Assembly (NCBI GenBank): GCA_000002445.1
Contig: CH464492.1
Location: 1-64,000 of the forward strand
From: Trypanosoma brucei
Taxonomy: Eukaryota
Reading direction: 5' to 3'
DNA length: 64,000 nt
Positions 1 to 64,000 of the stretch are shown here, piece after piece (the stretch's first letter is position 1; each line of letters begins with the position of its first letter). A model generated the notes under the pieces. That model was given only the letters and a program-made list of their open reading frames with translations. It was not told the DNA's origin and ran no database searches. A program made the position numbers and the translations under genes.

Positions 1-1078
1 GGTGGGAGAGCTCAATTCCTGCTCCATGGTGTTGACGTTCTTCTCTATACCAATGTTGACGCATAGCTCGTTAACCTTCAAACGGAAATATCCTCCAATT
101 AGCTTTTAGCCATGCGTACATGGGCTATCGAAGCCGCGGGCAACTCATTGCATCTGTGTCGTCTACAACGATAACTTCGAACAATATGTGATGGTGATCG
201 CTATCGGGAGAATACAGCGATGTCCACGTGTACACTGTGCAATACCTTGACAGCTGTCCATCATGGGTGGACTCCCCGTGGTGGCACGCGTACCTCGAGC
301 ACTCACCAGTGTTGCAAACCATAAACTGGTTGTCAATGCACCACTGTGTGAGGGTTTCACCCTTGGTATTCGGTGGGCTCGCGCGATCCCATGCCAACGC
401 GTGTGCGTTAGCGTCTGCACCGATGAGCTGGGCACCGTCAGTCGTCAGAAGCGTATCTAGGTCAGTTGCCGTGAATGTGTGTTTTGGTGGGATGTATGCC
501 GACGTGAAGGTCACCGCCTTTCCATGTGTAAGGTGAATTGTTGCATGCACTTGTTCAATGCGACCAACAACGGCCATACCGGTCTCGACTGGTAGGTCCT
601 CCCTCACTAGTATTGATACACCACCTCCTTTGCAGTTACGAGCTATTCCGTGATGTTGGTAGCCATCAACGCTAAAGCAAGCGGCTTCTCAAGGCGTCAT
701 CCTTGTCTCGCTCAACAGACAAAAGGCGATCCGCTCATCAACAAGGGTTTTGTGGAGTGCTAATCTCTTTCCTTGAGATAGCCCGGCGCAGTTCCACTGC
801 ATCCCGCGCAACGACAGGCCGGGATTCTCTTCCACATCACCGGACAGCAGCATCTTAGTGCGGATGATACTGCTGATGGCACGCTGGCACGTGCTCAGGG
901 ACCGACAAATGAAAAAGTGTGTGTCCCAGCAAGACGCTTCTGATCCCTGTGCTGTATGATGCCGTAGCCGGAGCAAAGCAGTGTTCCCCATGAAAGGAAC
1001 GCTGCTGGCTCTTGGCTTCCCCCGATGATACGGGGTACTGGACCCTGGCACCACGTTGAGGTGGCCGGCATCGCCAGG
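1..1078 (-). mobile_element. ingi: ingi/RIME non-LTR retrotransposon, 5' portion (element continues beyond window start)
   Basis: Minus-strand ORF 689..1375 contains LLSGDVEENPGLSLRGMQWNCAGLSQGKRLALHKTLVDE (2A-like peptide plus the ingi ORF N-terminus). ORF 125..607(-) is the APE-like region. The minus-strand terminus at 1078->1021 reads CCCCTGGCGATGCCGGCCACCTCAACGTGGTGCCAGGGTCCAGTACCCCGTATCATCGGGGG, the canonical RIME/ingi 5' end. The block is nearly identical to 34078-34908 and 57067-57916. Confidence 0.9.
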
Positions 1079-1700
1079 GGGTGCAAAGGTAGACAACCAG
1101 CAGACGGTCACGTCACAATGGGCCGCCCTAAAAGCCTCGTGCGCGCTAAACGACGACAACAGCATCACGGCGCACGAACTAACGGCAGCACTAACGGCTT
1201 GGTACGGCATTCTAACACAAGAAGGAGCAGCAAGTGACAACAGCGTCTGGATCGGCAAAAGCAGCAACACAGGGAGCGAATGCGCCGGGACGGCCGGCAA
1301 CACCTGCGTCGAGTACACAAACTTTTTCAAGAAGTCATCAACAACGACACACGAAACACAGCCGTGGTACAACAAGATGCGCCAAGCAGCAGTAGCAATT
1401 GAAAAAAGAGCGCTGCAGCAAGCTCAAGAAAGCCTCTACGCAGCAACGATAGAAACAACTTACGCAAAAGCAATAGCAGTCTACCAGGCGGCAGTTATAG
1501 GCAAACTGGTCCCACCCCTGTCGCAGGCACAGGCCCAAACAGAGCAAAAGGGCGCGGGAAACCCACAGAAATAACAAGCCATTTTCACCGCACACAAAAA
1601 CAACAAAGCTGCTTGTATTGATGCTAACTGCATATGGAAAGGTGGGGAAAGCGGGAAAGGGGAGTGCGAAATAGATAAAAACCAATTTCAGAGCAGTTAA
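1079..1700 (+). pseudogene. VSG fragment (mid N-domain to C-terminus) starting exactly at the ingi 5' end; in-frame TAA at 1572-1574; no hydrophobic GPI signal
   Basis: ORF 1056..1574 is Ala/Thr/Gln-rich N-domain-like sequence (…CAGTAGNTCVEYTNFF…). The same frame continues past the stop as …CIDANCIWKGGESGKGECEIDKNQFQSS*, a CKWEG-type C-terminal motif. It abuts the ingi terminus at 1078/1079. Confidence 0.65.
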
Positions 1701-2179
1701 ATGCGGTAGCAGAAGATGGAGAAAGCAGAGACAACAGCTATAAAAAAGTACAAAGAAAATTAGAATTAGACTGTGCCAAGGCTCTTGGCTGAAAATAGAA
1801 AAATAATGCTTTTAAAAACTCGACCATTCTCGTAAATAAAAAAATTGCTCTTTTCTCACCAAAATTTGTAGTTTAGGTAGAATTTTAGTATTCTAGAACT
1901 CTAAGGATTTTTGCTAAATTTTATAATAATTATGAAATTTTTTTAGATCCTTTTCTAAATATACTATGATTTGATATATTTTAAGACTATTAAATTCAAA
2001 TATTAAAATTAGTGAAAACCATGATAACTAAAAAAAAAATTTTTAAAGTTTGCAATTTGGTATTAATGTACCGTGTGGTTCAACAGCAGTATGGATAATG
2101 GTATGACAAGTTAGTGTTATTCTAATTTACTTTATTTTGTTTATTTAAGTCACTTATGGATACTTGTTAGCATTAAAAT

Positions 2180-2250
2180 AGTGATGTAACGATAATGATA
2201 GGAGAGTGTTGTGAGTGTATGCATATACTACTGTTATAATATGAGTTTTT
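2180..2250 (+). repeat. 70-bp repeat unit (VSG upstream recombination repeat)
   Basis: GTGATGTAACGATAATGATAGGAGAGTGTTGTGAGTGTATGCATATACTACTGTTATAATATGAG matches the TRR/GT-rich/AT-rich architecture of the other units in the window. Confidence 0.7.
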
Positions 2251-3559
2251 GTAGGGAACAATTCGAGGAGAAAAAGAGAAGTCTTTAAAGTAATGAAAAG
2301 GAATGAATTAGAGGAAGTGAATGGGTGGCTTGTTGAGTTATAGGGGAGAAATAAAATTGAATATGCACATTTTCAAATACAAAAAAATGACTGTAAACGT
2401 CATCATATACAAGGAAATATGTGGGGATAAAAGGAGAGAGAGAATAACATATTCAGTCGCATGAAATTGCTACTTTCTTCGAAGTGATGGCGGACGTACA
2501 TTTAGAATATAATGAAATACAGAGAGAAAAAAGTGAATGTGCGGCAAATCAAAGAACAGAAAAAATAATACAGGCTGAGATCGTACCACATATTTCACTG
2601 TATAATGGATAGATGTGACAAATGAAATTATAATAGTGACTGTAGTTTCAAATATGATAGTGGATATTGATTTCAAGCAGTAAAAAAATTCAAAATCATG
2701 AATAATGAGTTCTGTTAGTCAGAAATAATGTCCAAATTTTCTTCTTATCAGATATATTTCTAACGGCAAACATTTACGTCATACAATAAAATATAGCTGC
2801 GAGTGAAATTTTAAAACTGGAACTACTAATGTATTATCGACGTTTAAAAAAGCATGAAGACGCTGAAACTGCTGAAAATAGAACATATATGAAAGGATAG
2901 TAGAATACTATGAAGTACAAAAGTTTGTAATGATACTCTTTCAACTTCTTGCTGATATACTAAGGAGACACTAAGAACTTCCAAGGAACGAGTAATAAAT
3001 ATAAAGAGCTGGTAATGGTGAGTTGGTGGCGCGTATCAGTAAAGCAAAAACAACAAAAAAAGAAATTTCAGACTCCAATTCGCCAGATTTGATCGTCATT
3101 TCCACACAGCGAAACAAAATAATCAAAACCAGGAACAAATGGTCAATCATATGCTGGAGCAACAGCAATGCCATCTTCTTATTCGGAGTTAAAATGAGAA
3201 CTACAAATTAACAAATTAGAGAAAACAGCGAAAACAAAAATTTTAAGTGTTTATATATATATATATATTATAGGTTATATTTAAGACGTTAAATTGATAA
3301 GCTAAAAGTACGCTTTTTACTACAAATAGTCAACTGAGGATGTACGGCACACTTTTCTTTTTTTCAAACAATAAGCACCTTAAAACAAAAAACCTAAGGC
3401 GGCCACGAGACTGACAAAGAAAGACAAAAGTTAACCTGGATGAAATTCACTTTTGAAAAATCGCAGTTTAGAGAAAGTCCAGCAACTAAACACTAAAGTA
3501 AAAAAAAACTCAACTTAGTTCCAGGAGACTAAACGCTAACTCAGAAAGTTACACGGAAC

Positions 3560-4965
3560 ATACGCACCTCTGCATGAAAGAACAGACGGCAAACTCCTTC
3601 CTGAAATTTTAAGCAAAGAAAAATTGAAGAATAAACTAGCAATAGCAGTGGTCACTTTAATTGCGTCGTTTCGAGTAGTAAAGGCACAGCAACCCGCTCA
3701 AGCATGTAAGAGCGTCTGCGGCTGTGCTTACCGAGTAGAGTGAAGAGCAAAGCACTACATTGACGAGCTTGAAAATGCCAAAGCCGGACTCAAGGCGCTG
3801 AAAAGGCAATTATTAGCAGCAATAATAGCCGCGAACACGGGCACGGAGCTGAACAGGCAGCGCACCGTGCCAATTGTAGCAGCGGGAGCAGCTTTAGTAA
3901 GAGACTGCGAACAAGAAAAATCAAACAAAGAAACAGTCACAGCAAAATTAACTAATGCGTCGGCGGCTGCAGCGGCTTTACTCCGTGGCTTACACTACAT
4001 TAGCAAGTCAACACGAATTTACCACCTAACCTGTACGTCAGACTTAAACTTCAACACCGCGGCAAAAACGGCAGCAAATTCCGCTGAACTCAAAACACAC
4101 ATCGCCTGCAACGAACAGCTAACAGAAGATAAAGACATCGACGACAGGGATCCAAACGCGGCGGAGCCCGAAATCCCAGACCTCCTCATCAAGGTGAATG
4201 TCACGAATGATTGCTTATCAGCAAGCACGCCAACAAACTGCGGCGCAAACGACGTAACATCCAGCACGCAGCTGAAGTTCGGACTAAATTTAACAAAAGG
4301 CGCCGCGGCTGACAGCGACAATTTTGCAACAGCCTGGGGAGCGCCGTTAAAAGTAACGGCAGCAGACTTTAAACTTGCAACCCAAGCAATAGTAGACGCC
4401 AATGCGGCATTACAAGAGGCGAAAGAGGCACAAACAGTCATCGCGTGCAACAAAATACTGGCAAACTACGGAGATGTAGCAAGTACAAGCGACTACAGAC
4501 TATTCGTACTAAAAGTCTTAGGAGGTAAACCAATGGCGGAAAAAATCGAAGCAGCAGACGAAACTCTAATAGACACCGCAATCCAACAATCCTACGGCAA
4601 AGCAGGAGAAACCTACGAAGCAGAGTACTGGAAAGAGGTAGAAGCAACGCCAGTACCCAAGGGAGATGGCAAATCTGAAATAAAAGAGGAAGTGAAGAAA
4701 CTCCAAACAACGGCTTCGCGTGGTGCAGGGTTAGCGAGGATTTTTCTAAAAACACAAGTCCAGAAACAGGAACAAGAAAAAGAAAGCAAAAAAGTTAAAG
4801 AAACGAAATCACCAGATTGCAGCAGCAAAAAGGGAATTGAGTGTACGGGAGAATGCGAACTGGTAGAGGGAGCTTGCAAACCAACACAGAAGAGGGATGT
4901 AGAAGAGAAAGTTAAAGGTGGAAAAGAAGGAACAAAAATACAACAAGGAGAAATTTCTTTGTGAT
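3560..4965 (+). pseudogene. VSG-like pseudogene (signal-peptide-like start interrupted by stop; atypical C-terminus)
   Basis: Upstream frame reads …AIAVVTLIASFRVVKAQ… followed by stops. ORF 3867..4964 is an Ala/Thr-rich surface-glycoprotein-like N-domain. It ends …CSSKKGIECTGECELVEGACKP… with a degenerate hydrophobic tail in another frame. It is followed by a 16-mer-like TTGATGTATTTTAACAT and a 70-bp repeat. Confidence 0.55.
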
Positions 4966-5264: not shown

Positions 5265-5352
5265 CAACAGTGATAGTGTTGATAGTAATAGTAATAAAGT
5301 AACCGAAACAATGATGATGGAAGTGTGTACATACTAATATTATAATAAAAGT
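5265..5352 (+). repeat. 70-bp repeat unit
   Basis: GGTTACAACAGTGATAGTGTTGATAGTAATAGTAATAAAG…GATGATGGAAGTGTGTACATACTAATATTATAATAAAAG. Confidence 0.7.
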
Positions 5353-6126
5353 AGTGGTGAAAACTAAACTCACATTTCAAAATAAAGAATATGAACTAAT
5401 TTTGAGGCTGGTGTGGGAGTATGTGAGTTTGTCAAACAATAAATGAGACAGATAAATTGAATATTCACAATGTCAAATACATACATAACGGCACGCATCA
5501 TTATGTACAAAGGGATTATAGAGAAGGATATGGGGAAGAGTCAGAGGCTACTGCACAAGAAAAATGGTTCCACTAATTTATCTGCAGTGAAAGAAACATT
5601 ACCCCAAAAATAAGGAAAAAATATGGAATGAAAGAATAAAATGCGCAACAGAAAATCACGGATGAAAATGATACAGTAGCAGGTTGCCGCAGATATTACA
5701 CAAAAACAAATAGATTCTATTTTTGAGGTTAAATTGACTTTGGTTTTTAATCTTATGGTGTATACAGATGTGAAGCATTGATATTTGGAGACAACGATTC
5801 ACGCAGAGGATTGTGGATCAATTGGAGGTGATGAGGGTGAATAATATTTAAAAAGACAAAACAATATTGTTTTAGATCGAAAACACCGCCACCCACTGGG
5901 AAAAATGTCTCTGACAGCATTAGTAATGCACTGAATGCTAAAAACAAATGTACTTTTGGCAGATGCAAACAGGCGGAAACAGAAACAATCACTTTAAAAT
6001 CATCTATACAACAGCTACGCAACACTAACGTGAGCACTAAACCTTCATTCCGCTATCTCCAAATGCAAGGCCAATAAGCGTAGTAAAAAAAAGCACGCGA
6101 TAAATCTAGCTGACCAGCGAAAGTCT

Positions 6127-7650
6127 TTGTCAATGGCCTCAACTGTAGCGGCTACGCCCATACTATTGTTTCTATTGGTGGCCACCACAGCAGCAACAGA
6201 CACGGCAGACACCATAAACGCCTTGGCCACAGACTTTTGCAGACTCGATATCTACTATGACGCTATTCAAACCGAACTTGCAGGCTGGATAACGGCAGCC
6301 AGCTCGACAGCGGTAGCCCTGGAAAAAGAGGCGCGGCAGATGCAACTGGCAGCAGAAATCTACAGGGGCTTCAACAAGGGTGCCGCTTATTATGTTTTAG
6401 CAGTCGTATCCAGCCAAAGCGCTGACAGCGCCGCTAAAACAGCGGAAGAAGCAGCCGCTAATATATTACCAGCGGTGCAGCTAATAACCGCAAGAAGAGC
6501 AGAAGCGGCGACTCTACAATTTTTTGAAGAAACAGCAGCGCTGAAGCCAGCAAAACATACTCCAGCAGCAACCGACCGGACAGCAGTACCGCAAACCGCG
6601 TCTAACACCAAGATCTGCACGGCAGAAGTGCAACCGGAATAAAAATTAGTGAAAGACTGCTCAAGCGCTGAAGGAGCCAAGGCAAGGATCACGAAGATAA
6701 GACAACACCTAGACAAACTGCATAAAATACAGACAGTAAAAACTACGGCGATGAAACCACCCAAAAATCAGATAACAGCAGAGGCCCAGGGGACATTCAA
6801 CAACGCCAATCAATGGGAACCAACAAAGGACAACAAAGCATGCGAACAACACACAAGCGGGGCCGGCACAGGCAGCGCAACAGCAGCAGACGCCACCAAC
6901 GCACTGGCAGTGGCGGCTGTGAAACTCGTCGGGGAGACAACACGATCAGCGCTAGACATAACAACCCAGGGAGCACAACCCAACAGCGAGACACAAGACG
7001 GGCAAGACAAAACAACCGACCGGCGGCTACTAACAGCCGACTCGGCGCTGGCCGCATCCCTGAAGACAGCGATAACAGCAAAGCCTACTCAATATAAGCG
7101 GCTTGCGGACTGGACGATCAGTGACGCGGCAAAAAGTGCCGCAGCCCAAGCGTTCTATAAATTCGCAAGAAAAGCACAAGCCAAAGAAACAGATTCACCA
7201 GTGACAGAAAAAATAGAGGAGGCAATGTTTGGGAAAAAAGACGTCAACATAAAAGATGAATTTATAGACCCTCTTACACGCGACACGCGGATAATTTCAA
7301 CTGAAAACGGAAAAATCGAAAGCAGCACAGAAAACTAAGTGAAAGCAACTTCGCACGGGCCATGGCTTATTATTATAGCGAAAACATAAAAAAGGCAGCG
7401 GTAACTGCAGGAGGCAACCCCAAAGCAGATGGTCAAGCAGCTGCAGGAGCAGACAAAACCGAAGAAAAGAAAGACGGGGACAATAAAGCCATAAAGTCAA
7501 ATTGTTCTAGTAATTCTACATCGGAAGCCTTTACCAAAATGCAGATTTGCAAACTGGAAAATAATGCTTGAAAATATTCCAGTTTTCTTGTAAATAAGAA
7601 ATTGGCTATGAGTATGGCTGCTGCTTTTGTGAGTTTGGTGGTATTCTTGC
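6127..7650 (+). pseudogene. VSG pseudogene (signal peptide present; in-frame TAA at 6640-6642; frameshifts before the GPI signal)
   Basis: MSMASTVAATPILLFLLVATTAATDTADTINA signal peptide. The coding sequence continues in the same frame after the stop (ORF 6649..7338), then shifts frame (7362..7571). A GPI-signal-like NKKLAMSMAAAFVSLVVF sits in a third frame at about 7590-7650. Confidence 0.75.
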
Positions 7651-7904
7651 ATTTTAAGGATTATTGCTCAATTTTATAAAACTTATAAAATTTAATATGT
7701 TGAGAGAAATTGTTGTTCTGACAGACATCTTTAAATTTGATATATTTAAACACTTTTTGATGAAAGAAAAAATATTGTAAAACTCCAAAATATAAAATTT
7801 TTTTGTTTAAAAGTGTTCTATTGATAAAAAGTAATAGGGTTATATGGAACGAAAAACGAGTGCTTCTCCAATTTGGTTTAATTATTTAATGGATATCGGT
7901 TAGG

Positions 7905-8005
7905 GTTATAATAATAATAGTGATATATCAAAATAGTGAAAATTATGATAATAATAATAACAGGAGTGTGTCGTGATTGTGTATATACGAATATTATAAG
8001 AAGAG
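7905..8005 (+). repeat. 70-bp repeat unit(s)
   Basis: GGTTAGGGTTATAATAATAATAGTGATATATC…GATAATAATAATAACAGGAGTGTGTCGTGATTGTGTATATACGAATATTATAAGAAG. Confidence 0.75.
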
Positions 8006-8918
8006 TGGTGGTAAGGGGTAAAATAGAGTGTAAAAATAGAAGTACTCAAGTTATGGGAGGGGTGCAATTAGTGAGTGAATCATTTAGTAAGTGAGAAAGC
8101 TAAAAATAACACAACGAATATTATTAAAAGATGTTTGAGGAAAGAAATGTAGATGAAGTGCGCACAGTCACACACACAAACATGACTATGTGTATTATTA
8201 TACTGTAGGAGATGATGAAGGGAACAATCATGGGAAAACATAGTTAAGTGTTGAAGTGAAATGGAGCCATTACATTGTTTGCAATGATAGAGGTAGCAAA
8301 AAAAATACTAAAGAGAAGGAAATAAAGTATGGAGTGAAACAACGGGATGATCAAAAGCCTACTGGAGAAGGAAGAGGTACAGGAAAAAACTGTGATTCAC
8401 ATTTTACAGAGAAAACTGATAAATGCTAATGTATTTCTCACAAATATAGATTAGAAGTGAATGCAGAGATGTTAGTAACCAAAAACAGTAACAGTAGTTA
8501 AAAAAGATACTGAGATAGACGTCTCGTGATTAAACCGAATGGTTGTGCAGTTATTGCAAAAAAATAGTAACATTCTTAGTAAAGCTGCGCACAGATAGTA
8601 CATCTTGATAATGCAATCCACATAACAATGAATATAGGGAAAATATGAAGAATACAAGGAGTATCAGAATACACACAGTAGAAGGCTAGAGATATACCCA
8701 AATCTTACTACTTAAAAAAATGTAGGTACGTACTCAAAGATAAGATACCAATATTGAGCATAAACAATTCAACAGATGTTCCATAAAAATCAAGGCATTA
8801 CATAAATATAAATACTAATTTCTTAACCAATAACATTATAAGGGAAAGTGACTTCCTTTCAAAAATTTCTGAGCTTTTCTTACAAATCTCTCAAAAAATT
8901 TAAAGGCATGTTAGGGAA

Positions 8919-52094: not shown

Positions 52095-52185
52095 TTTTCT
52101 CTTAGCAATAAGTGTTTTTACCAGCACTTAACCGTAACGACTTTAGCTCTTTTTTTTAATCATGCGAGTCGCTCTTTTTTAATGC

Positions 52186-52240
52186 AACCCTAACCCTTAT
52201 TCTTCCACTCCCCCCCCCAACGCCCAACTCCGCTTAACTT
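52186..52240 (+). repeat. Inverted C-strand telomere-like tract (CCCTAA x2 plus C-rich run), head-to-head with 52046-52094
   Basis: AACCCTAACCCTTATTCTTCCACTCCCCCCCCCAACGCCCAACTCC. Confidence 0.7.
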
Positions 52241-52664
52241 TTTCACCTGCACCTTCGCCCGTATTTGTAACTTTTTTCTGCTTCTGTGGATTTCAGCTCT
52301 GCATTTTGAGCTGCGCGCGGTATCAATTTTTTTTAAAGCTGGAGCGCGGCCTATAACACCGCACGCAATTCTTTTACGCCGCCTCGCTGCAGTATCGGTG
52401 CGCCAAACAATTTTTGTTTTCAAAAAGAAAATAAAGGAAGGGGAAAATATTTGTGAGATGGCAATTATAAAGAGCAGAAATTAAGGAGCGATTAGACAAT
52501 CTGCTGCTGGCACCCAACGGCCAAAGACGATAAACTGCCAGAGGTACGTTTTTAACCCCTAAGCCGTCGAGGATAAAATGTGCACATTGAGTGAGAGAAA
52601 TCAAGAAGATAGAACAAAAAGAAGCGCGAACAGATGGAGACAAAAAAGAGAACTATTATTTTTT

Positions 52665-55600
52665 TTGAAATTTTCTTCGTGACTTCGTGAGAGTTTCTCC
52701 CCACTGGCGAGTCCATCAGCCATAACCGTAGAGCCATGAGATGCTATCGGTCTGGCGACTGTGGCAGAGTCTCCCTTTTTTATTCAGCCTAACACACCCT
52801 CTATAATTTTTTGTTGTAGCTCCGCAGTTGGACGGAATACAGCAGATGGAGCAGAAAGCCCCCCACCCCTGACTCTCCAAAAGATGTCAATTAACAGTCC
52901 TTTTGTTTTGATTTTTGTTATTCGTTTATTATTCTCTCCTCTTTCTCTTTCTGTTTTTGTTGCTTGTTGACAGCATACCCTCTCTGTCTCTGAGGGTGTC
53001 TGGACTATTCCTGCGTCCGGTGCTTTTCCTGCTGGCTCCACACTCGGCAATAAGGGGGGAAGCTGCAGAATGGAGAGTGGGTTGTATGACTGTTACATTA
53101 GGTGAGGACTTCACCTGCGGCCGGCTCCGTTCAACCGCAATAAGAAACTGCGCCAGCCTTTTAGAGAAACATATATCCTGCACACACACACTCACCTTCT
53201 ACCGCAAACCTAACACGTAACTCCTTCAAACCGGGACAGCTCATCAAGTGCAGCGACGTTTCTTCGCAGTCGCCGCGTTGGCTGGTAACAGCGCACTCTA
53301 CCTTCATACCTTGCATCTTCTTTTGATGTAGGGTGAGGCCAGTTTTGCTAGCACACTGCCTTCCGCATGTCGGGCATACCAACATGGATGTGTTTGTATG
53401 CGGGGAATCAGTGGCAAGCAATTTTGTGCTTTTGCTGCATTTAAGCTCGACTCCCTCACCTTTGTGGAAAGCCTTACAGTGTCGGATGAGGGAGTCCCTG
53501 CAACTGAGCATTTTTTGGCACACACCACACTGCACCTCGCCCTTCCCCGGGACGTCAACGTTTCCCTCACGGGCACGCTTACGAGGGAATTGCACCACCA
53601 CCACGGTACCGTCCTCCGTCACTATGCTCTTATGTTTGAATTTCTTGTGTAGTGACAGGGAAGAACGTGTACCGAAGCTCGCCTCGCACAGGTCACATTG
53701 AAACGGCAGCTTCCGTGTATCCTGAGAGGCTGGCGCTGCTGGGGCTCTACCATCTCCTTGCACTGAGTCCTCGTTCTCTCTCCCCCTTTTCACGCGGCAA
53801 CTACCGCTGCCTATGCCATGTATTGTTCTAAGGTGGTGTAATAGTCGGCCTAGCACTGCGAATATGGAGGCACAGATGGTACAATGAAGCACCTGCAGTC
53901 TCATCGGGACTCGTGTGCTCGATGGTAGAGGAACGATCGCCACCGCTGGAGGGGGCTCCGGGGGGATGTCCACTGCAGGTGTTGCATCGCCGTATTTGAT
54001 CCTCCGGAGGGCATCAGCTCGCACAAAGCCATGTTTGTTTACCATATGCGTTACAGCACTCGAGCGGCATTGGTATGTGGCATCACATTCCGTATATTAG
54101 GTCGGTTCGGAGGTTCTCTGAAGAGTGCGTGTCGCAACAGTTGGGGATGTTTGTATTGTGGGTCCTATTGCTTCATGTTTCGGGTTACACCATCGGCACT
54201 GTGGAGGCACACTCGGGTTGATATTTCGCAACATCCATCCATAGTGTCTTGAAGAACCAACCCGAAAGCGTGCCAGTGCCGTTTCTTCTTCCCTCGTCAG
54301 TTCTTCATTATGTTTTGTTGGAAAGTGGTTGCCCGTGATACCAAACCTATGAGTGTTCTCATGGACTTCTTCCGACCTAAGCACTCGCTTCGCATAAGCA
54401 ATGATGTCGGGGACCCATGTGTCTCGCAACTGTGGTAAATCAGCGGCCTTTTTGGCCATTTCATCGCAAACCTCATTCCGTTTCACGCCACAATGGCCAA
54501 ACAAAAATTGCAGTCGGATACGTATCTTCCTTCTCTGAACTTGAAGCAGAAGCCTCCATAGTCGTCTCAGAATTGGGTCCGTTACGGCTAGGGGGCCTGT
54601 CTGCAATGCTGTTAACATTGACAGCGAGTCAGAGAAGATGGACAACCTGCTCGGTGTGCTTCTGTATGCCGGAACCCATTTCAGCAGCCGTTGCAGTCCT
54701 ATCTCTAATGCTACGCATTCCGCTCTGTAACTTCATGAGAGTTCCCCTGCTCCGGTCTTGGGTGCGCAAATCAGCGTGTTGTTTCTATAGAGCAGGGCAG
54801 CTGCTCCGAACTTCTCACCGAGGGACAAAGATCCATCAGTCCACAATTCGTAGTGCTCTCGTCGCGGTGGCTCCTTCCCCCTCCGTGCAAAATGCCGTTC
54901 AATCCACTTTTCGGAAGCCTCCCTTTTGACATTGTTAGAGTCATCAGCGCACACAGGCTTTATCTGCGTGTGAAATAGCGGTCGGCAGCTGTGGCGGAGC
55001 GTCGATGTCTCTAGTGGGTTTTCGCGTGGCTCAATGCGGAGGTGAAGGTAGGACCGCATGATGCGGGAATGTGTGGCTCTGACTGGGTGTTTGCTGTGAT
55101 ATGCTTCCTCAGCACTGCGCCGCAAACATCCGCCTCGTGACTCACACATCAGCATGAATTTCATGCTGCGCACAAGAGTGGTCGTCTTGAGTGGCAGGAG
55201 GTTTGCTTCCAGCAGACAGTCCTCTTTGCTCGTCCCATGTGGTATGCCAGCTATGATGCGACTGACCTTGTGTTGCGCTGCTGCAAGGAGGTCGCGACTT
55301 CGTTCCGAAGCGTCCCAGTACCATACCTCAATGCCATACATGGTGTGTGCCTGTACGAGTGCTAGATAAAAAGCTCTCAGTACTTGTCGTCTTGGCCCCC
55401 ATGTAGAAGCTGAGATGGCTGCTATCTGCAGTAGTAGGAAGTCCATCTTGCGTCTCGTTTCTGCCGCATGTGTTGCCATCCCTTGCAGACACTGGAATGT
55501 TACTCCTAGAAGCTTCGGTGTCCTGTCAGCTCCTATTCTTTCGCCGTCCATTGTAATGTAAGGGGGTGGCGCTCTATACACCCGAAGAGTGTGCACTTCG

Positions 55601-57916
55601 TTTTCGCTACGTTGACAGACATGAAGTACTCTTTTGACCACTGTAACACCACGTTTAGGCCGCATTACAGCGTGTGGTTGATGACATCCCTCTCTGTGTG
55701 CCTCGCAAGTAGCGTCAGGTCATCTGCAAAGAATCCGTGCTGCAGTAACGGCACTTCTGCAAGGCGCTGGCTCAACGAGTTCATGACAATAATGAACATG
55801 ATTGGGCCAAGGACAGTTCCTTGTGGCACTCCTCGCTCAAATGTTCTGCTGCTGGAAAGCTTCTCCTTGAATCTCACTCTGCCAGTTCGGTTACTCAGAA
55901 ATGATACACACCACTTCACAATGTGGGGTGATACCTTCATTCTGTGCATTTCCCTCGCAATTTTGTCGTGGTCTACTGTATCGAATGCCTTCTCTTAGTC
56001 GACGAATACAGCACCTGTACGATATTGGTGCGTGGGACGGCAGAGGGCAGCGCGGACGTGCAGGAGGTGTTCGAGCGTTGAGCATCCGGGGCGAAAGCCT
56101 GATTGCTGCGGCGTCAGCTGGGACTCAACAGTGTCTCTAAGTCTCGCGGCAATTATTCGCTCCATGACTTTGCAGAGACAGCTCGTGAGCGTCACTGGCC
56201 TGTAAGAATCGAGGTCCTCCGCCTTTTTTCCGGCCTTCAGGATGGGGATGATAACACCAGTCTTCCATGCAGACGGCACGACTCCCGTTCGTAGGCTCTC
56301 ATTGAATAGCCTCAGAACAACATTCAGCGCTGTTCTACCGAGATGTTGCAGTGCCTTGTTGTATAAGCAATCAGGTCCGGCTGCGGATCCACTCGGTAGC
56401 AGTTTGATCGATCTCCGTAGTTCAGCCATCGTGATGGGACTGAACTCACTCGCTATCGTCTTTATGTGTGCCGGTGGGTGTGAGTCGGGGTGCCTTCTTG
56501 CGCAAGACGAGTACAGTTTAATGAACCTCTCAGCTTGACGGTAGTCCGTGATGGCCGCGTTATCAACAAGCACAGCCGGTGTGGTTAGTGGTCGTGGCGC
56601 ATATACCTTCTTGACAATGTGCCAACTGCAGCGGTCTGACACCGCAAGTCTGGAGCATAGCGTGCTCCATCTCTTCTTTGTGGTACGGTCCAGAATCTGC
56701 TTACGCGTGGCTACCAACTTTTCTCTTATGTGGAAAGGTCCTCATCCAGCGATCTCTTCATCGAGTTTCGCGAGCTCAGGTGTCCAATGTGGTGGCGTTA
56801 CTCTGCAGCCACGGGGGACGGAGACATTCGTCGCAGTGCGGATGGCGGAGCTCAATTTCTGTTCCAGAGTGTTGACATTCTTCTCTCTACCAATTTTCCT
56901 GCAGAGCTCGTGAACCTTGAGACGGAAATTCCTCCAGTTAGCTTTTAGCCATGCGTACATGGGCTTTTGAAGCCGCGGGCAACTCAGTGCATCTGTGTCG
57001 TCTCCAACGATATCGTCGAAAAATATGTTATGGTGATCGCTATCGGGAGAATACAGCGATGTCCACGTGTACACTGTGCAATTCCTTGACAGTGTCACAT
57101 CAGGGGTGGACTCCTCGTGGTGGCGCGTGTACCTGGTGCACTCACCAGTGTTACATACCAGAAACTGGTTGTCAATGCACCACTGTGTGAGGGTTTCACC
57201 CTTGGTATTTGGTGGGCTCGCGCGATCCCATGCCAACGCGTGTGCGTTAGCGTCTGCACCGATGAGCTTGGCACCGTCAGTTGTCAGAAGCGTATCTAGG
57301 TCAGTTGCCGTGAAGGTGTGTTTTGGTGGGATGTATGCCGACGTGACAGTCAGCGCCGTTCCACGTGCAAGGTGAATTGTTGCATGCACTTGTTCAATGC
57401 GACCAACAACGGTCATACCAGTCTCGACTAGCAGGTTCTCCATCACTAGTATTGATACACCACCTCCTTTGCAGTTACGAGCTATTCTGTGATGTCGGTA
57501 GCCAGCAACGCTAAAGCAAACCACCTCTCCAGGCGTCATCCTTGTCTCGCTCAACAGACAAAAGACAATCCGCTCATCAACAAGGGTTTTGTGGAGTGCT
57601 AATCTCTTTTCTTGAGATAGCCCAGCGCAGTTCCACTGCATCCCGCGCAACGACAGGCCGGGATTCTCTTCCACATCACCGGACAGCAGCATGTTAGTGC
57701 GGATGATATTGCTGATGGCACGCTGGCACATGCCCAGGGACCGACAAATGAAAAACGGTGTCCCAGCAAGACGCTGCTGATCCCTGTGCTGTATAATGCC
57801 TTGGCCGGAGCACAGCATTGTTCCCCATGAAAGGAACGTTGGTGGCTCTTGGCTTCCCCCGATGATACGGGGTACTGGACCCTGGCACCACGTTGATGTT
57901 GCCGGCATCGCCAGGG
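52665..57916 (-). mobile_element. ingi: Full-length ingi retrotransposon (about 5.25 kb), ORF fragmented by frameshifts
   Basis: 3' end (T-run at 52655-52665 plus the RIME 3' half). ORFs 53161..54045(-) ZnF, 54097..54645(-) RNaseH, 54733..55665(-), 55665..55949(-) and 55995..56717(-) RT. ORF 56742..57956(-) is APE-like, contains …LLSGDVEENPGLSLRGMQWNCAGLSQEKRLALHKTLVDE… and reads through the element 5' end. 5' terminus at about 57916. Confidence 0.95.
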
Positions 57917-58455
57917 GACGAATTTGAAACCACCCTGAGCGTGACACATTACTCAAATGGAAAATTTAAAGTAGACGGTAACGCTATGACAAAAACAGCC
58001 AAACTCTATCTCACAAGTCAGAAAGGTCAAAACAAGAAAAGACACAACCATGCACGACTTTCTCTGCCCTTTCAGTACAACACAACGGCAGATAGCGACC
58101 AAGTTATTAAATATGGCAAAAATATCTGGCACAACCGCGAAACAAAAGCGCGCATGGAACTGATTAACAGCATAAAATTCTTTCTAAAAGTAATCGCTGG
58201 ACGCAAAACTGGCAATAAACAGCCTCAATACGCCCTCTAACGGAATTCTTACAGCACCTAAAAAGGACAACTACAGGCGAAAAGGCGGCCCCAAATAGCT
58301 GAAAAGTGCAACTCGTTCAGGCCTTAAACCACAAAGAAAGCCATTCTAAATCCATAGGACCAGCGGCTTTTCAGATGAAGCCGAGACCACAAGACAACAC
58401 TGCCTTCACCGCCTGTAAGTTGTAATGCCTCAAGACAAGCCTGATATTTTCTTAA

Positions 58456-59990
58456 ATGCCACCGAAGTTAGAGATGCAGAGCAAGAAACTACGTAGACTA
58501 GCTATAGACCTAACACTAGCGCTAATTGCAGTGACTGGGACAGCAATAGGCTCGGCACCAGACGACAGTGCATATTTCTCTGCACTTTCTGCAGTTTACA
58601 ACCTTGCCGAAGTCAAAGACAAAATCGCGCCAGAGACGGCTTTCCCAGAAGCAACTACGATTCTAGAAGAGGCAAGCAACCTAAACCTATCAACAGCAAA
58701 CGACGGTTATTTTGATGCTGCGGATGACATTTATCACCAAGGCGGCAAAGTCAAAGATCAAGAAGGGCTTAAGCAATGGTAAGAAAAAAATAAAGCTATA
58801 GCGGACAAAGACCTGGCCGGCCAGAAGCCGTATCTAAGGTTGCCAGAACACAATGCACGGCACCGAGCAAACAAGAGAATTTACACGCTATTAAACAGGA
58901 GCGCGGAGCTGATAACGCAATATAACGCAGCTAAGCAAGCCTACAATGAGGCGAGAACAAATGCGATGAACAGCCTCACAGAAGCAGTCTATGGAAAAGG
59001 CAAAGTGGACTTCGACAAGGGCAGATTCAACAACGAAGCGGGCGCCGGGAGGGGTAAGGCATGCGGGGCGACGGCGCAGGGAGGAAACAATGTAGGAGCA
59101 GCGCTAGCCGACGCTTGTATTTGTCTTTGTACAGCTTCAGGAAACCCAGCGCAAAACGAGTGTGCGGACTCGCTGACTGGCCAGGTTGACGCAGCCGGCG
59201 ACAAAAGCGATCAAGCAAAGGCAGCATGGGACAACGTCAAAACAAAATGCAAATATATGCCGCAGCCACAGCCCAGCTAATGGCAAAGATCGACGCAAGC
59301 AACACGGACGCAACGCAAGCAACACGGACGCAACGCAAGCAAACGGGCGGTGAACTCTAGAAAAAACTAACACCGCAGCTTGCGCAGGCGTCCAGGCAAC
59401 ACCCACCATGTGCATAAACTTCAAACAACAGCTCGGCACAAGCGACGGAAAGCTACCATGGCTAGAAAAGCTACACGAAGCAGAAAACCAACTGATGACA
59501 GCCGCATGAAAAGAGAGCGAAGCAGCAGCTCTCAAGCAAACCCTTATGCAGCTAAATAATGACGCCCGGGCTTCTTACGTCGACGCACAACACGAAATTG
59601 AAAACCCACCAAAGCTTACGCAACTTCACCCACAATCCCCCGCCAAAACAACCAATGAAGAGGACTGTAAAAAACACAAATAAAGCGGCAAATGCGCTGA
59701 GCCGTGCCAAAGGGGTGACAATGCCACTGGTGCAAACAAAAAATGCTCATTAGATCCAAAAAAGCTGCAGATCAAGCAGCTCAGGTATAAAAAGAAACAT
59801 GAGAGCAACCTTCAAAGTATGCTGGACAAGATACCAAAGAGAAATGTGAAGGAGTCAAATGAACTCCAGCCCCAGGCAAAAAATATGTTTGTGGACGGAT
59901 AGAAGACAAGTGCAAAGATTACAGTTTTCTAGTAAATAAGAAATTTGCCCTGATTGTTGCTTCTGCTTTTGTGAGTTTGGTAGGACTCTA
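58456..59990 (+). pseudogene. VSG pseudogene (signal peptide present; multiple stops and frameshifts; GPI signal in a different frame)
   Basis: Signal-peptide region …LRRLAIDLTLALIAVTGTAIGSAPDDS…. ORF 58840..59280 contains …ACICLCTASGNPAQNECADSLTG…. Terminal …CKDYSFLVNKKFALIVASAFVSLVGL* at about 59900-59990. Contains a 20-bp tandem duplication at 59283-59345. Confidence 0.7.
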
Positions 59991-60154
59991 GCATTTTAAG
60001 GATAATAGCTAAATTTCACTCAATTTCTTAAAATTATGAAATTAAAGTAAAATATGTATAATAGTGGTATATGGGTGCAAAGTAATAGAGTAATAGTGTA
60101 TGAAAAATAAGTGCTGTTCTAACTTGGTTATTTTTTATTTAATGAATGCTGGTT

Positions 60155-60260
60155 AGGAATATAATTATTATCATTATTATTATTATGATAATAATGATGA
60201 TAATAATAATGATAATGATTATTATAAGAGAATGTTGTGAGTGTGTGGAAATGAGAGAAA
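60155..60260 (+). repeat. 70-bp repeat units
   Basis: ATAATTATTATCATTATTATTATTATGATAATAATGATGATAATAATAATGATAATGATTATTATAAGAGAATGTTGTGAGTGTGTGGAAATGAGAG. Confidence 0.75.
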
Positions 60261-62121
60261 ACAAGAGAAATAATATTAAAGTTGACACGAAAATAAAAAA
60301 GAAAAAATTAGATATAATATGCGTATTTTGACACACAAACATGAGTAGGATCATCATTACAAAGAAGTTGATAGAAGTGGCAATGATGTAGAAATAACCT
60401 CTAGTGTACACAGCAAATAGATTTGTTACGTCACTCGCTGTGTTGAAAGCATAAAAGGAAAAGAAGGGAAAAATTAAGGCACATTACGGAAAAGCAAAAC
60501 ACATTGGAATTAATAAATCAAGAGGATAAAAAGGATATGTTGTTCTTATTATACTAACAAATTGATAGATTATCATGCAGAATTTATGATAAAGACTGTA
60601 GTTATATGCTGATGGGGAATACTAATATGTGGCTTTGAATAATAAAAAGAATTATGATGAGGAGAAGAAAGAAAGGATTTGGTAATTGTGAAGTAATGTA
60701 CAACCATCTTCTTATCAGATACAGTAATAGGCACTAACATTTGTGGGCACAGTATTTTACTCTATGGAAGAATAATTTAAAACTAAACTACTAATGGACT
60801 GCCGAGGAAAGGAAAAGAAGGAATAAAAGCGCAGAAAGTGCTTAACAACCTCATAAATGAACCGCCATTTATCTTTATATAAATATGAAAAGTTTGCAAT
60901 GATGATCCAACAGTTCTATTCTTGTACAATGGCAAACCTTTGAACACTTTGAAGGAGCGACTAAATCATGTAAGAATATTCACTAATTTGGCATTGATGG
61001 AGTACCTTAGGAAACTTGTAAATAAAAAAATGCAGTAAGTGACGAACTTTCAGGGAGAGAGAGGCGAAAAAGAGCGTCATTTAGGCAGGATCACACTTGT
61101 AAATACTCAAAGCCATGCGGACGCTAGAGACGGCGGCGTTGTATTGTCACAGCCAATGCATCTGCACGATAGGAGTGGAGGCACAAATAAAACAAAGCGG
61201 CCGAAAAGACAGATGTTTTAGAAACGGATATAGAACAATCTAAATTATAATTGCAAAGTGGAAGTTCTTGGCCTTAACTGAGTGTGTTTTTACGTCACTA
61301 CTCTGTCACAGAGAATCCAAGCCATGGCACCTTTTTTTACCATTCGAACCACAAAACGGCAATAAATCTCGACTTTGCAGCCACAGTTCACTGAATGAAA
61401 GCAGCGCAGCGTTCTGAAATGCACTCCCCAACAACTTCAATATTGTCAAGTCACATTATACCTCGTAACTACAAATTTCGGTATCCGAATCCATTAAAAA
61501 AAGTATCAGAAGCAGTGTTACCTGTGTCAGCAACTTTTAAAGATCACAAGAAAGGAAGCAGAAGAGCACCAACACGAAAAGTGCGCAGATAGCTGCAAAT
61601 ACCTCACTCGGTTACCATCACGGCTTCTACACTACGGCATAAAGAAAGACACATCCATTCAGAAGCAGAGATCTATGAGAATTTTACCCACCAGGCTATT
61701 AGAGCCAACCGACCAAACGGCAGCGCCAATGATTATTAGGCCACAATTGCAGTGGAAAAAGCATGCCCTTGAAAGACAACTGACAAGATGCGACTATGGC
61801 ATTTTCTGCTTCCGAGAGGTGAACGAGGAGACGCTTTCAGATGTAAATAAAGCAAGAATCAACCTCGAAAGTGACCACAAAACAAAAATAACAGCATCAA
61901 GATATTGGAACATAGATTCAATAGGAGTACACACCAGCAGCACTCAATTTGAACCAACAGGTCAAAAGCATAAAAAAGTAACCGCCACTCGCAAGGAAAC
62001 AGAAGCCGAATCGACTATTGCAACGCTATTTAAAAACCCCGGAGGTTTATAGAAGGTATATCTCTCGTTTCCAAGTTTTGGTTAACAGGTTGTCTCAATA
62101 AATTAGGTAAATCAGCAGAAA

Positions 62122-63710
62122 ATGACAAATAACAAAATCAATAATGCGCCAAGCAATATGCGAAGCAAAACTATGTTATGTGCGGCCACACTTGCCCTAG
62201 CATTGCTCGTAACCCTTTTGCCAACGATAACAGCAGATGCAGCCGTGGCACACGCCGGGTCTTCAGCAAGCGGATTCAGGGTGATCTGCAACTTAATTAA
62301 CCTAGCGTCCATGGAATTAGAATCACCTAACTTGCCATCAACAGAAACCGAAATAGAAGACACAGTCGCACTAATAAACCTAACGTTGATGGCCCCGAAA
62401 GCGCTTGACGAACTCACTGCGGCGCCTGACTTATCACAGCTATGGAAAAAGGACAAAAATGAAACAAAAACACATTGTGCTGCAGAAGCCAGGCAAAGTT
62501 GCCGGAAAGCAGTAAATAGAGCGAAAACCCACGGCAAAGGCAACGTGATAGAGGCGGCCAAAAAGCTAGGTACGAACCCCGACGTGATCCCGCCGCTAAC
62601 AGAGACGATAAACCAAATCACCAAGGCTCTGACAGACTATTCTGAAGCGGCTAATGCAGCAGACGACAAAACCATACCAGCCGTCCTTGAAGCTGCTCTC
62701 AGAGGCAAAACGGACGGCACTACAACTGTAAAGCTCGCAGATGCGACTAACGACAGGCAGATAACGTGCGGCATACCCTCTGGCGAAACCAAAGGGACAA
62801 CAGGAGGCATACCTTAGCCGCAGACGTAATCTATTTGTGTGAGAGCGACGACAGCGATTCAGGCAACAATAACGCATGCTCGCTAAAAACAAAAAGAAGC
62901 GACATAAACTTCGCCGACGCTAATACAGACATTAAAGACGAATGTAAAAAAAACTAACAACCGAATGCAAAACACAATACCCAGGCAACAAACTCAACAG
63001 CAAGACACTTCAGACGGCGCTGCTGGCTTTTGACATCGAAATCGCAAAGAGCCAAGGAACAAACGGCAAGCTAATTAATACCCTAGGGTATATTGCAGGA
63101 GCTGGCAGCACTGGATGCGACGGCAGCAACGGCGGCACACACGGCGCTTGTGTTTACTACGGGAAGGACGACACTAACAAAAACGCACTTTCACCGGCGT
63201 GGTGCAAGCACATAACAGACGTAATAAACAAGATAAAAGCAGAGCAGAACGCGAACAATGCAACTACAATAGCGATGCGACTTGAAACATTAAACAACAC
63301 TCTCACTTCGCTCATACTTCTTGGTGCAGTGAGCAGTCAAAAGACACAACAAGCGACTGAAACTGCAACACAAAGCAAAAGTAGAGAAATATATGCACAA
63401 GAAGCAGCCAAAAAGGAATGCGAAAAGGCTAACTGCAAATGGAAAGGAGGGGAGAGTGAAACCAAAGTGGAATAAGAAGTAGATAAGAGCAAAATTAAAG
63501 AACAGAAGAATACAGAAGGAGCAGGAGAGGGTCATGCATGGACAGCGGCCACAACTGGGTGTGCGAAACACGGCATTGATAAGTCAAAATATGAAGATGA
63601 GAAAAGCTGCAAATGAAAGGGAGAAACTTGCAAAGATTTCGGAATTCTCGTCAATAAGAAATTGGCTCTGAGTGTGGCTGCTGTCATGAGTTTGGTGGTA
63701 TTTTAGGTTT
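62122..63710 (+). pseudogene. VSG pseudogene (N-domain ORF with signal peptide, then frameshifts; stop inside the C-terminal CK*KGETCKD motif)
   Basis: Signal peptide region …MLCAATLALALLVTLLPTITADAAVAHA…. Internal …YIAGAGSTGCDGSNGGTHGACVYYGKDD…. C-terminus …EKSCK*KGETCKDFGILVNKKLALSVAAVMSLVVF*. Confidence 0.75.
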
Positions 63711-63924
63711 TTTTAATTTTTAAATATGTTGTTTTTTAAGAAACGTTTTACGCAAAAATTTTTTAATATTTGCTAAACTTTGAGATATTTTGACACTTTA
63801 TAATTTAAATGTACGACTTTTTAGTAACATTTGTGTAAATTTGGCCTATTGGTGTAACGAAGTATGTTGTTAAGATATGGAAAACAAATGCTATTCTAAT
63901 TTTGTTTGTTTTGTAGATATTAGT

Positions 63925-63932
63925 TGGAGCTC

Positions 63933-63963
<31 letters not shown>

Positions 63964-64000
63964 AATAAAAGGAGAGTGTTGTAAGGGTATGTGTATACGA
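63925..64000 (+). repeat. 70-bp repeat unit (continues past window end)
   Basis: TAATAATAATAATGATAATGATAATGATAATAATAAAAGGAGAGTGTTGTAAGGGTATGTGTATACGA. Confidence 0.7.

Follow-up and report, generated by a model that had tools for sequence, protein, structure and literature searches.

The stretch of DNA analysed (64 kb; the window) carries 16 VSG-derived units, U1 to U16, all of which we placed with local profiles and tblastn. Two of them are fully intact, one is atypical, one is cut by an assembly gap and the remaining 12 are pseudogenes or fragments. The units are listed below with strand, state and evidence; CTD denotes the VSG C-terminal domain and 16-mer the 3'UTR 16-mer.

U1, 1081..1990, plus: B-type VSG 3' half, a fragment truncated 5' by ingi D; matches Pfam VSG_B over profile positions 234-351 (E 3.5e-19), CTD profile matches 1575-1697 and 1799-1873, 16-mer at 1972 (1 mismatch)
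U2, 3540..4961, plus: A-type (VSG13-like) pseudogene; a stop codon at 3741-3743 interrupts the frame, and ORF 3540-3740 contains the N-terminal piece; 74% identity to VSG 1125.4847, match to PDB VSG MITat1.13 6z8g (E 1.4e-21); no canonical GPI signal and no Pfam match
U3, 6034..7676, plus: full-length VSG pseudogene that has a signal peptide; its frame contains stops and shifts ahead of the CTD/GPI signal; CTD matches, 16-mer at 7738 (1 mismatch); Pfam and PDB searches gave no match for the N-domain
U4, 10325..11866, plus: B-type VSG, complete 513-aa ORF, Pfam VSG_B and CTD, classed as atypical; loss of the stop codon that closes the GPI signal lengthens the product by ~26 aa, and DSS is changed to DFS; degenerate 16-mer at 11884 (2 mismatches)
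U5, 13082..14682, plus: A-type pseudogene, its frame interrupted by a stop at 14072 and shifted ahead of the CTD; Pfam PF00913 (E 3.8e-15), CTD 14530-14682, 16-mer at 14765 (2 mismatches)
U6, 16538..18091, plus: intact B-type VSG, 517 aa, with signal peptide, CTD and canonical GPI signal; Pfam VSG_B E 3e-83, CTD E 1.5e-19, exact 16-mer 18148-18163
U7, 18789..19049, plus: VSG fragment, C-terminal domain only; 16-mer at 19083 (2 mismatches)
U8, 27889..28650, plus: VSG 3' half, open in one frame, its 5' half lost in a gap; its translation ends in the canonical class-2 GPI signal SNSFFIKTSPLLLAFLIL and a stop
U9, 35495..37074, minus: B-type pseudogene with a frameshift and the GPI-signal stop lost (Pfam, translation)
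U10, 38827..40335, minus: B-type pseudogene (Pfam, CTD, translation); its one in-frame stop falls on the CKWE cysteine codon, and the GPI signal is degenerate
U11, 42417..43879, minus: probable A-type VSG pseudogene containing the N gap 43323-43422; weak VSGsur match (E 0.0016), C-terminus LLF followed by two stops
U12, 44728..45695, minus: B-type VSG whose N-domain has lost its 5' part, CTD and GPI signal present; Pfam VSG_B 183-351
U13, 47067..47795, plus: 3' VSG fragment with complete CTD (Pfam CTD E 8.7e-11)
U14, 50321..51883, plus: intact B-type VSG, 520 aa (Pfam), starting at the ATG at 50321; exact 16-mer 51920-51935
U15, 58456..59997, plus: B-type pseudogene with several stops and frameshifts (Pfam, CTD)
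U16, 62107..63730, plus: B-type pseudogene (Pfam, CTD); 16-mer at 63781 (2 mismatches)

Across the window, Pfam detected A-type and B-type (VSG_B) VSG N-terminal domains as well as VSG C-terminal domains, with E values down to 3e-83; the N-domains of U3, U8 and U11 were assigned mainly from position and C-terminal features, without a significant N-domain match. The many VSG C-terminal and GPI signals that had been predicted were borne out by a motif scan combined with Pfam PF10659 and a local CTD profile, which placed such sites in the first 20 kb at ~1575-1873, 7572-7676, 11500-11866, 14530-14682, 17750-18091 and 18852-18998, and in the rest of the window at ~28450-28650, 35495-35750 (minus), 38827-39102 (minus), 44728-44907 (minus), 47430-47795, 51600-51883, 59863-59988 and 63617-63703. 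The original prediction had counted about 13 VSGs, three of them intact; that most are defective stands, while the units number 16 and the intact ones two, plus one atypical. In silent arrays 80-90% of the VSG repertoire is pseudogenic (PMC6464242; PMC12137147).

Protein comparison showed that the three full-length VSG ORFs match annotated TREU927 proteins exactly: U4 (CAJ17128.1), U6 (XP_828095.1) and U14 (XP_828097.1), indicating that the organism is T. brucei brucei TREU927. ORF 16538..18091 had been delimited correctly as a VSG. ORF 50282..51883 is likewise a VSG, but the match is exact from the ATG at 50321, position 50282 being a bacterial-style GTG start.

The VSG-derived units are arranged as recombination cassettes in the order 70-bp repeat, spacer of 0.7-2.3 kb, VSG and 3'UTR 16-mer. 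The repeats and associated tracts are as follows.

2197..2245, plus: 70-bp unit, 5' of U2
5323..5355, plus: partial 70-bp unit, 5' of U3 (E 5.6e-06)
7959..8009, plus: 70-bp unit, 5' of U4 (E 2.7e-10)
12115..12153, plus: 70-bp unit, 5' of U5 (core and profile matches)
14937..15875, plus: array of 11 70-bp units, TAA-rich run and GT-rich core (TRF periods 68-97; 11 core matches)
18301..18341, plus: degenerate TTAGGG tract, 209 nt past the U6 stop (TRF GGGTTA x6.8)
28872..28915, plus: orphan 70-bp unit; ingi B begins 0.7 kb further on
38518..38556, minus: 70-bp unit, 5' of U9
41958..42092, minus: two 70-bp units, 5' of U10
48028..48177, plus: two 70-bp units, 5' of U14 (TRF, core and profile)
52050..52199, no strand assigned: degenerate TTAGGG tract 52050-52092, 194 nt past the U14 stop, with inverted CCCTAA x2 at 52188-52199
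60185..60247, plus: 70-bp unit, 5' of U16 (TRF and core)
63933..64000, plus: 70-bp unit of the following cassette, beyond the window

Scanning the window for the 70-bp core GAGAGTGTTGTGAGTGTGTG gave 20 matches with up to 3 mismatches against 0.02 expected, and the 16-mer gave 9 matches against 0.09 expected, each 35-120 nt past a VSG 3' end; both counts exceed the shuffled expectation more than 100-fold. With a profile derived from the 11 array units at 14963-15875, more degenerate units were detected at 2197, 5323, 7959, 12115, 19274, 28872, 38518 (minus), 41958 (minus), 42039 (minus), 48043, 48120 and 63967. As predicted, 70-bp repeats lie 5' of most cassettes: units found by the profile precede 9 of the 16 VSG units, and two more are orphans. 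The units are nearly identical, base for base, to the published Lister 427 BES1 repeats, and the distances between repeat and VSG agree with the published spacing of ~1.5 kb. The 70-bp repeats have been reported in the T. brucei group only (PMC4858185), and an essential role has been reported for the 16-mer (PMC5698767). An exact 16-mer together with a short TTAGGG tract ~200 nt downstream was observed only at the two intact VSGs, U6 and U14.

The array is interrupted by four minus-strand copies of the non-LTR retrotransposon ingi, one further ingi-like dispersed element and a relic of ESAG1.

1..1080, minus: ingi D, 5' 1.08 kb, the remainder lying left of the window; adjoins the truncated VSG U1
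21092..22823, plus: ingi-clade retroposon-like dispersed element with an A13 tail at its end
24750..25350, minus: relic of ESAG1 carrying a frameshift and lacking an internal segment (Pfam PF03238, E 5e-40 to 1e-51)
26989..27786, minus: ingi A, 3' 0.8 kb, running into the gap 27787-27886
29641..34909, minus: ingi B, complete, 5269 bp, ORF in at least 3 pieces; at a convergent strand switch
52659..57917, minus: ingi C, complete, 5259 bp, ORF in at least 4 pieces

Three ingi with RIME ends had been predicted; their identity and the RIME ends were confirmed and the coordinates 29641-34908 proved correct, but the pieces number four, of which two are complete, one stops at the window boundary and one enters a gap. 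Neither the dispersed element nor the ESAG1 relic had been noted. The two complete copies, ingi B and ingi C, are 94.6% identical; ingi D is 95% identical to 33839-34909 and 92% to 56848-57917, carries RIME primer F3 at sense position 234 and gives endonuclease-region protein matches, and ingi A is 95% identical to 29640-30437 and contains the RIME 3'-half primers. All published RIME primers map within the ingi copies, to their first ~250 and last ~245 nt, and plus-strand runs of T9-10 correspond to the ingi A-tails. The ingi copies encode Exo_endo_phos_2, RVT_1 and zf-C2H2 domains (Pfam), and the best relatives of their RT are T. brucei-group RT and 'Tbingi protein'. Their GC content is 52.1% and that of the remaining window sequence 40.6%; these values, and the length, match the published description (52.3% against 41%, 5.25 kb; PMC2323293). 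In length, GC content, order of domains and A-tail, and in having a RIME half at either end, the copies resemble the known ingi/RIME pair; they differ in that the complete copies have a broken ORF and no visible 12-bp target-site duplications. No target-site duplication was found at any ingi copy, which is atypical for untouched insertions. Given the broken ORFs, both complete copies are non-autonomous relics. The dispersed element resembles ingi only over its first 220 nt, at 87% identity to the ingi 5' end; its ORF (21764-22726) is a different and dispersed one, bearing the annotation 'T. brucei spp.-specific protein'.

The cassettes fall into three strand blocks: those at 1-29.6 kb and 47-64 kb are on the plus strand, and the one between them, at 35-46.3 kb, is on the minus strand. 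The scaffold contains three gaps of 100 N each (27787-27886, 43323-43422 and 44450-44549), which leave order, orientation and the states of two genes locally uncertain. All three signature types, namely CTD/GPI signals, 70-bp repeats and ingi, are present far over chance, no tRNA or Rfam family was found in the window, and we met nothing that contradicts the identification. Organism, genes, repeats, elements and the state of each gene are established directly. With at least 12 of the 16 units defective, no expression-site gene set and no long telomere tract, the locus conforms to the published picture of a silent array, and we conclude that the window is, almost certainly, part of a T. brucei brucei TREU927 silent VSG array. 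Like the silent subtelomeric arrays of TREU927 (the 'VSG archive'), it has the cassette layout, a mix of A- and B-type N-domains, mostly defective copies and ingi insertions, and it shows no essential difference from them: it is a piece of the archive, of draft quality owing to the three scaffold gaps. It is also a stretch of an already sequenced and annotated genome and in that respect nothing new. The evidence supports the earlier reading of organism, locus type and element identities, and its counts alone need correction.

Might the window instead be a chromosome-internal VSG 'island'? Such islands exist, segmental duplication can bring several canonical VSGs into them (PMC2854126), and chromosomal position goes beyond what the window alone shows. 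However, islands are said to be less common, the single example given having 8 VSGs (PMC2854126), whereas here 16 units and four ingi pieces extend over 64 kb in which no housekeeping gene was found, and the source record bearing two of these VSGs is 286 kb long. We consider an island improbable.

Slighter still is the chance that the window represents the end of a minichromosome or a telomeric VSG expression site of the bloodstream or metacyclic type. It resembles a bloodstream expression site (BES) in having 70-bp repeats 5' of an intact VSG (the 11-unit array before U6), TTAGGG repeats ~200 nt past that VSG, a distance that fits the 200-1600 nt reported at expression sites (PMC3963442), and ESAG1-related sequence. 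Yet the two TTAGGG tracts are internal and span no more than 12-41 nt, further VSG cassettes continuing for tens of kb beyond them, and the 70-bp array is shorter than 1 kb. In a BES the conserved order is ESAG7-6-5-3-4-8-3-2-11-1 (PMC2567434); here the promoter-proximal ESAG set is missing and no other ESAG was detected in the ORFs scanned, the frameshifted ESAG1 relic standing alone on the strand opposite U6, 6.7 kb past the U6 stop and 17 kb from the end of the U6 70-bp array. An expression site has one or two VSGs, with one terminal gene, rather than 16 units. The short internal TTAGGG tracts, the lone relic and the number of VSG units refute presentation of the window as an expression site. 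Bacterial or other non-trypanosome DNA with VSG-like motifs arising by chance was rejected, as nothing supports it and it is contradicted by the exact full-length T. brucei protein matches, the Pfam E values, the motif counts and the lack of any tRNA or Rfam family; the prediction of a T. brucei-group VSG array rather than bacterial DNA is upheld by those matches, the taxon-restricted 70-bp repeats and the RIME primers.

Taken as a silent array, and judging from established knowledge, the locus would not be transcribed in place. Its intact VSGs would be switched on by being copied into a telomeric expression site through duplicative gene conversion, for which the 70-bp repeats could provide the homology on the 5' side and the C-terminal/3'UTR region that on the 3' side. 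The defective copies may give segments to mosaic VSGs through segmental gene conversion, and array pseudogenes have in general been shown by experiment to serve as mosaic donors (PMC12137147; PMC3708902). The ingi copies, because their ORFs are broken, are probably dead insertions, and the absence of target-site duplications would fit recombination of the copies with one another at a later time. A silent array in which most of the surface-coat (VSG) genes are broken and ingi has inserted, as found here, is the textbook raw material for antigenic variation.

In a six-frame motif scan, the signature of VSG C-termini and GPI signals (CKWE..., C[KQ]...LLF followed by a stop) recurred many times on both strands. 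Combining tblastn with the window's own VSGs, Pfam searches of stop-to-stop ORFs, local profile HMMs, database and PDB searches and direct translation, we found 16 VSG-derived units (U1 to U16, numbered from left to right), two intact, one atypical, one cut by a gap and 12 defective. The original prediction of a silent VSG array is supported, as VSG domains, 70-bp repeats and ingi retrotransposons were all confirmed; its estimate of about 13 VSGs, three of them intact, came near the exact count of 16 units, with two intact and one atypical. The usable share of two to three in 16 agrees with the 80-90% pseudogenes published for the VSG repertoire (PMC6464242). Because this is eukaryotic (kinetoplastid) DNA, calls of ORFs, operons, promoters and terminators made by bacterial rules are meaningless here. 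The units are as follows:

16538-18091: U6, 517 aa, intact, with signal peptide, complete N- and C-terminal domains and canonical GPI signal
50321-51883: U14, 520 aa, intact, with signal peptide, complete N- and C-terminal domains and canonical GPI signal
10325-11866: U4, atypical, ORF complete, stop after the GPI signal lost
27889-28650: U8, open, with the class-2 GPI signal SNSFFIKTSPLLLAFLIL and a stop at its end, 5' half in a gap
U2, U3, U5, U9, U10, U15 and U16: full-length pseudogenes with in-frame stops or frameshifts
U11: probably a full-length pseudogene, with a gap inside
U1: fragment, cut by the partial ingi copy D, which adjoins the truncated VSG at 1081
U7: fragment, C-terminal domain only
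U12: fragment, 5' part missing
U13: fragment, 3' part only

The Pfam families represented in these units were PF13206, PF00913 and PF10659. The ORFs at 16538-18091, 50282-51883 and 10325-11866 matched VSG_B (E 3e-83, 3e-61 and 2e-30, respectively), each together with the VSG C-terminal domain, and the minus-strand ORFs 39103-40335 and 35492-36592 were also assigned to VSG_B. The GPI signals of U6 and U14 end in LLF or MLF before the stop; in U4, translation revealed that loss of the stop adds ~26 residues and that DSS is changed to DFS. The N-domain types are mixed, U5 being A-type (Pfam) and the majority of the remaining units B-type. U2 is related to VSG13 (PDB 6z8g, E 1.4e-21) and is 74% identical to EATRO1125 VSG 1125.4847, the N-domain of U11 gave only a weak VSGsur match, and Pfam and PDB searches returned no class for the N-domains of U3 (6034-7335) and U8 (27889-28599).

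Comparison with annotated T. brucei brucei TREU927 VSGs showed that the U6 protein (16538-18088) is identical residue for residue to XP_828095.1 / EAN78983.1, and that all residues of the U14 (50321-51880) and U4 (10325-11863) proteins are identical to XP_828097.1 / EAN78985.1 / CAJ16998.1 and CAJ17128.1, respectively; a 286,308-bp record carries both the XP_828095.1 and the XP_828097.1 VSGs. The three exact matches indicate that the DNA of the window has already been sequenced and annotated. The locus is a standard example of the VSG archive, with nothing beyond the published TREU927 annotation. The exact match to XP_828095.1 bears out ORF 16538..18091 as a VSG; ORF 50282..51883 is likewise a VSG, matching XP_828097.1, but its bacterial-style GTG start at 50282 was wrong, the start being at 50321. 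U6 and 'VSG 1125.186' from strain EATRO1125 cluster together at 90% identity, indicating that U6 is conserved between strains; the U4 and U14 proteins are singletons in the protein collection. Three scaffold gaps of unspecified size, each a run of exactly 100 N, interrupt the window, and a single N lies at 27772. The gap at 27787-27886 truncates ingi copy A and conceals the 5' half of U8, that at 43323-43422 lies inside U11, and that at 44450-44549 lies just 3' of U12, between U12 and U11, at the expected site of the 70-bp repeat of U11. Scans for tRNA genes and Rfam families found none in the window.

Searching the window with the 70-bp repeat core GAGAGTGTTGTGAGTGTGTG at up to 3 mismatches gave 20 matches, compared with 0.02 expected. 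Tandem Repeats Finder placed an array between 14937 and 15875 (periods 68-97 nt), the units of which correspond nearly base for base to the published Lister 427 BES1 (bloodstream VSG expression site) repeats, e.g. ATAATAATGATAATAATAATAGGAGAGTGTTGTGAGTGTGTGTATATACGAATATTATAATAAGGGCAGTAATAATA (PMC4858185 supplement), and a profile built from this 11-unit array found more degenerate units. Together, core matches and profile placed a 70-bp unit 0.7-2.3 kb upstream of U2, U3, U4, U5, U6, U9, U10, U14 and U16, in keeping with the published repeat-to-VSG spacing of ~1.5 kb (PMC4858185). The repeats had been predicted upstream of almost every VSG, and this holds, as they are absent only where ingi, a gap or truncation removed the upstream region. 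The cassettes, i.e. 70-bp repeat, spacer, VSG and 3'UTR, switch strand twice, first convergently, at the complete ingi copy B, and then divergently. Self-comparison also revealed a non-coding upstream segment of 0.5-0.95 kb, with 75-92% identity, common to four cassettes and located between the 70-bp repeat and the gene:

8896-9788: common upstream segment
20124-20611: common upstream segment
48977-49953: common upstream segment
40593-41534, minus strand: common upstream segment

The VSGs behind these segments share only ~25% protein identity, and the copy at 20124 is followed by retroposon remnants, not by a VSG.

GC content is 41-49% where the window looks coding and 30-35% in its AT-rich spacers, and two 5-kb blocks are exceptional at 51-53%. 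Self-comparison found two complete repeats of 5.26-5.27 kb, 94.6% identical, and two partial copies, so that the original prediction of three ingi was right in identity, the number being four pieces, two complete and two partial:

1-1080, minus strand: ingi D, partial
26989-27786, minus strand: ingi A, partial
29641-34909, minus strand: ingi B, complete
52659-57917, minus strand: ingi C, complete

The complete copies, 5269 and 5259 bp, have a GC content of 52.1% vs 40.6% in the rest of the window; the published figures for ingi are 5.25 kb and 52.3% vs 41% (PMC2323293). On the minus strand, Pfam detected endonuclease (PF14529), reverse transcriptase (PF00078) and C2H2 zinc finger (PF13894) in this order, and the nearest named relatives of the reverse transcriptase were a T. 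brucei equiperdum reverse transcriptase (84% identity) and the 'Tbingi protein' of T. theileri and T. grayi. Both complete copies carry a T9-T10 run at the low-coordinate end of the plus strand, i.e. an A-tail on the element strand. Their 5' ends read CCCTGGCGATGCCGGCCACCTCAACGTGG..., in agreement with what we take to be the conserved 77-79-nt 5' hallmark of ingi. The predicted RIME ends were tested independently by mapping published RIME-LAMP primers (PMC6324077), which mapped to both ends of the complete copies. At each ingi 5' end, primer F3 falls at sense positions 232-234; F2, LF, F1c, B1c, LB, B2 and B3 fall, in correct order and orientation, within the last 20-245 nt. These positions set the RIME halves ~4.77 kb apart, matching the definition of ingi, in which RIME halves stand at the ends around a ~4.7 kb core. 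Neither complete copy has a single long ORF: in each it is broken into at least 3-4 pieces, so that both are inactive, as are most ingi copies. A search beside the ends of ingi B and C for a shared flank of at least 10 nt, as a target-site duplication would leave, was negative, which is compatible with post-insertion recombination between copies, given that ingi and RIME tend to recombine with one another (PMC2854126). All four copies lie on the minus strand, with ingi B exactly at the convergent switch of plus- and minus-strand cassettes, and at the divergent switch there is a 27-nt piece of the ingi 5' hallmark (46817-46843, minus strand; 92.6% identity, E 1.6e-4).

The earlier inventory was incomplete, having missed, besides the two strand changes, an element at 21092-22823, a short DIRE-like piece just upstream of it (20742-20966) and an ESAG1 relic. 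Over its first 220 nt, the 21092-22823 element (plus strand) shares 87% identity with the 5' end of ingi/RIME, and its other end is formed by an A13 tract. Its ORF 21764-22726 has 96% identity to a 'conserved hypothetical' protein of TREU927. This protein is one of a cluster of 21 near-identical proteins that carry the annotation 'T. brucei spp.-specific protein' and are encoded on many chromosomes in TREU927, DAL972 and T. b. equiperdum. Within the ORF there are C2H2-like motifs, and it aligns weakly and colinearly with the C-terminal region of ingi (E 0.003). The position of this ORF after a 70-bp unit and the shared upstream segment would suit a diverged VSG; this reading was rejected, as the ORF matches no VSG profile, is preceded by an ingi 5' segment and followed by an A-tail, and belongs to a dispersed near-identical family. 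Judged by its sequence features, the element is probably a dispersed repeat derived from an ingi-clade retroposon and annotated as a host gene; no target-site duplication was found beside it. The ESAG1 relic (~24750-25350, minus strand; PF03238) is frameshifted and internally deleted, the middle of the domain being missing. It stands alone, flanked by the dispersed element and ingi copy A, and neither a VSG nor 70-bp repeats follow it on its own strand.

Searching the window with TGATATATTTTAACAC, which we take to be the 16-mer of the VSG 3'UTR, gave nine matches at up to 2 mismatches, compared with 0.09 expected, always just 3' of a VSG end. An essential role has been reported for the 16-mer (PMC5698767). 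Exact copies were found only at U6 and U14, the two intact genes, and copies with 1-2 mismatches at U1, U2, U3, U4, U5, U7 and U16; at this threshold none was found for the minus-strand units, U8, U13 or U15. Short degenerate TTAGGG tracts follow U6 and U14 only, 209 and 194 nt past the stop codon, respectively, and at U14 an additional inverted CCCTAA x2 lies ~100 nt beyond the tract. The regions from the 16-mer through the tract and, at U14, the inverted CCCTAA x2 are:

18148-18341: downstream of U6
51920-52199: downstream of U14

The ~750-bp regions downstream of the two genes are homologous in three colinear blocks, tract included, and no further copy of this module was found in the window. 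Two independent telomere captures were rejected, as the tract belongs to the colinear homology, which indicates one inherited module and not two separate events. At expression sites, VSG and telomere lie 200-1600 nt apart (PMC3963442); the tract spacing equals the lower end of this range and suggests telomeric ancestry of the downstream module, in a sample that is effectively one since the U6 and U14 cassettes are related. It is conceivable, if quite improbable, that the TTAGGG tract inside this module marks ex-telomeric copies folded into the array and may also still act as 3' homology with the expression-site telomere tract. If so, array genes followed by such a tract would gain an activation advantage over neighbours without it. 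In literature other than the primary archive papers, we came across no mention of internal TTAGGG tracts behind array VSGs, a weak negative. Whether VSG intactness goes with exact 16-mers and short internal TTAGGG tracts across the archive is a question for the whole genome.

In bloodstream expression sites the ESAGs follow a conserved order (ESAG7-6-5-3-4-8-3-2-11-1), the 70-bp tract is long and one terminal VSG lies beside the telomere (PMC2567434). In contrast, the window has neither this ESAG order nor a long 70-bp tract, and it lacks the terminal telomere; the ESAG1 relic is the only member of the ESAG set found in the ORFs scanned, and the window contains no long telomere tract, indicating that it is not itself an expression site. 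Whereas our analysis establishes the identity and state of the genes and elements, the mechanism is inferred from established work: the array VSGs would be silent in place, and recombination would bring them into the one telomeric expression site that is active. Experiments have shown that mosaic VSGs receive segments from pseudogenes of subtelomeric arrays (PMC12137147; PMC3708902). Other findings from the window are to be read against this VSG-array background, the locus exemplifying the VSG archive that drives antigenic variation in African trypanosomes.
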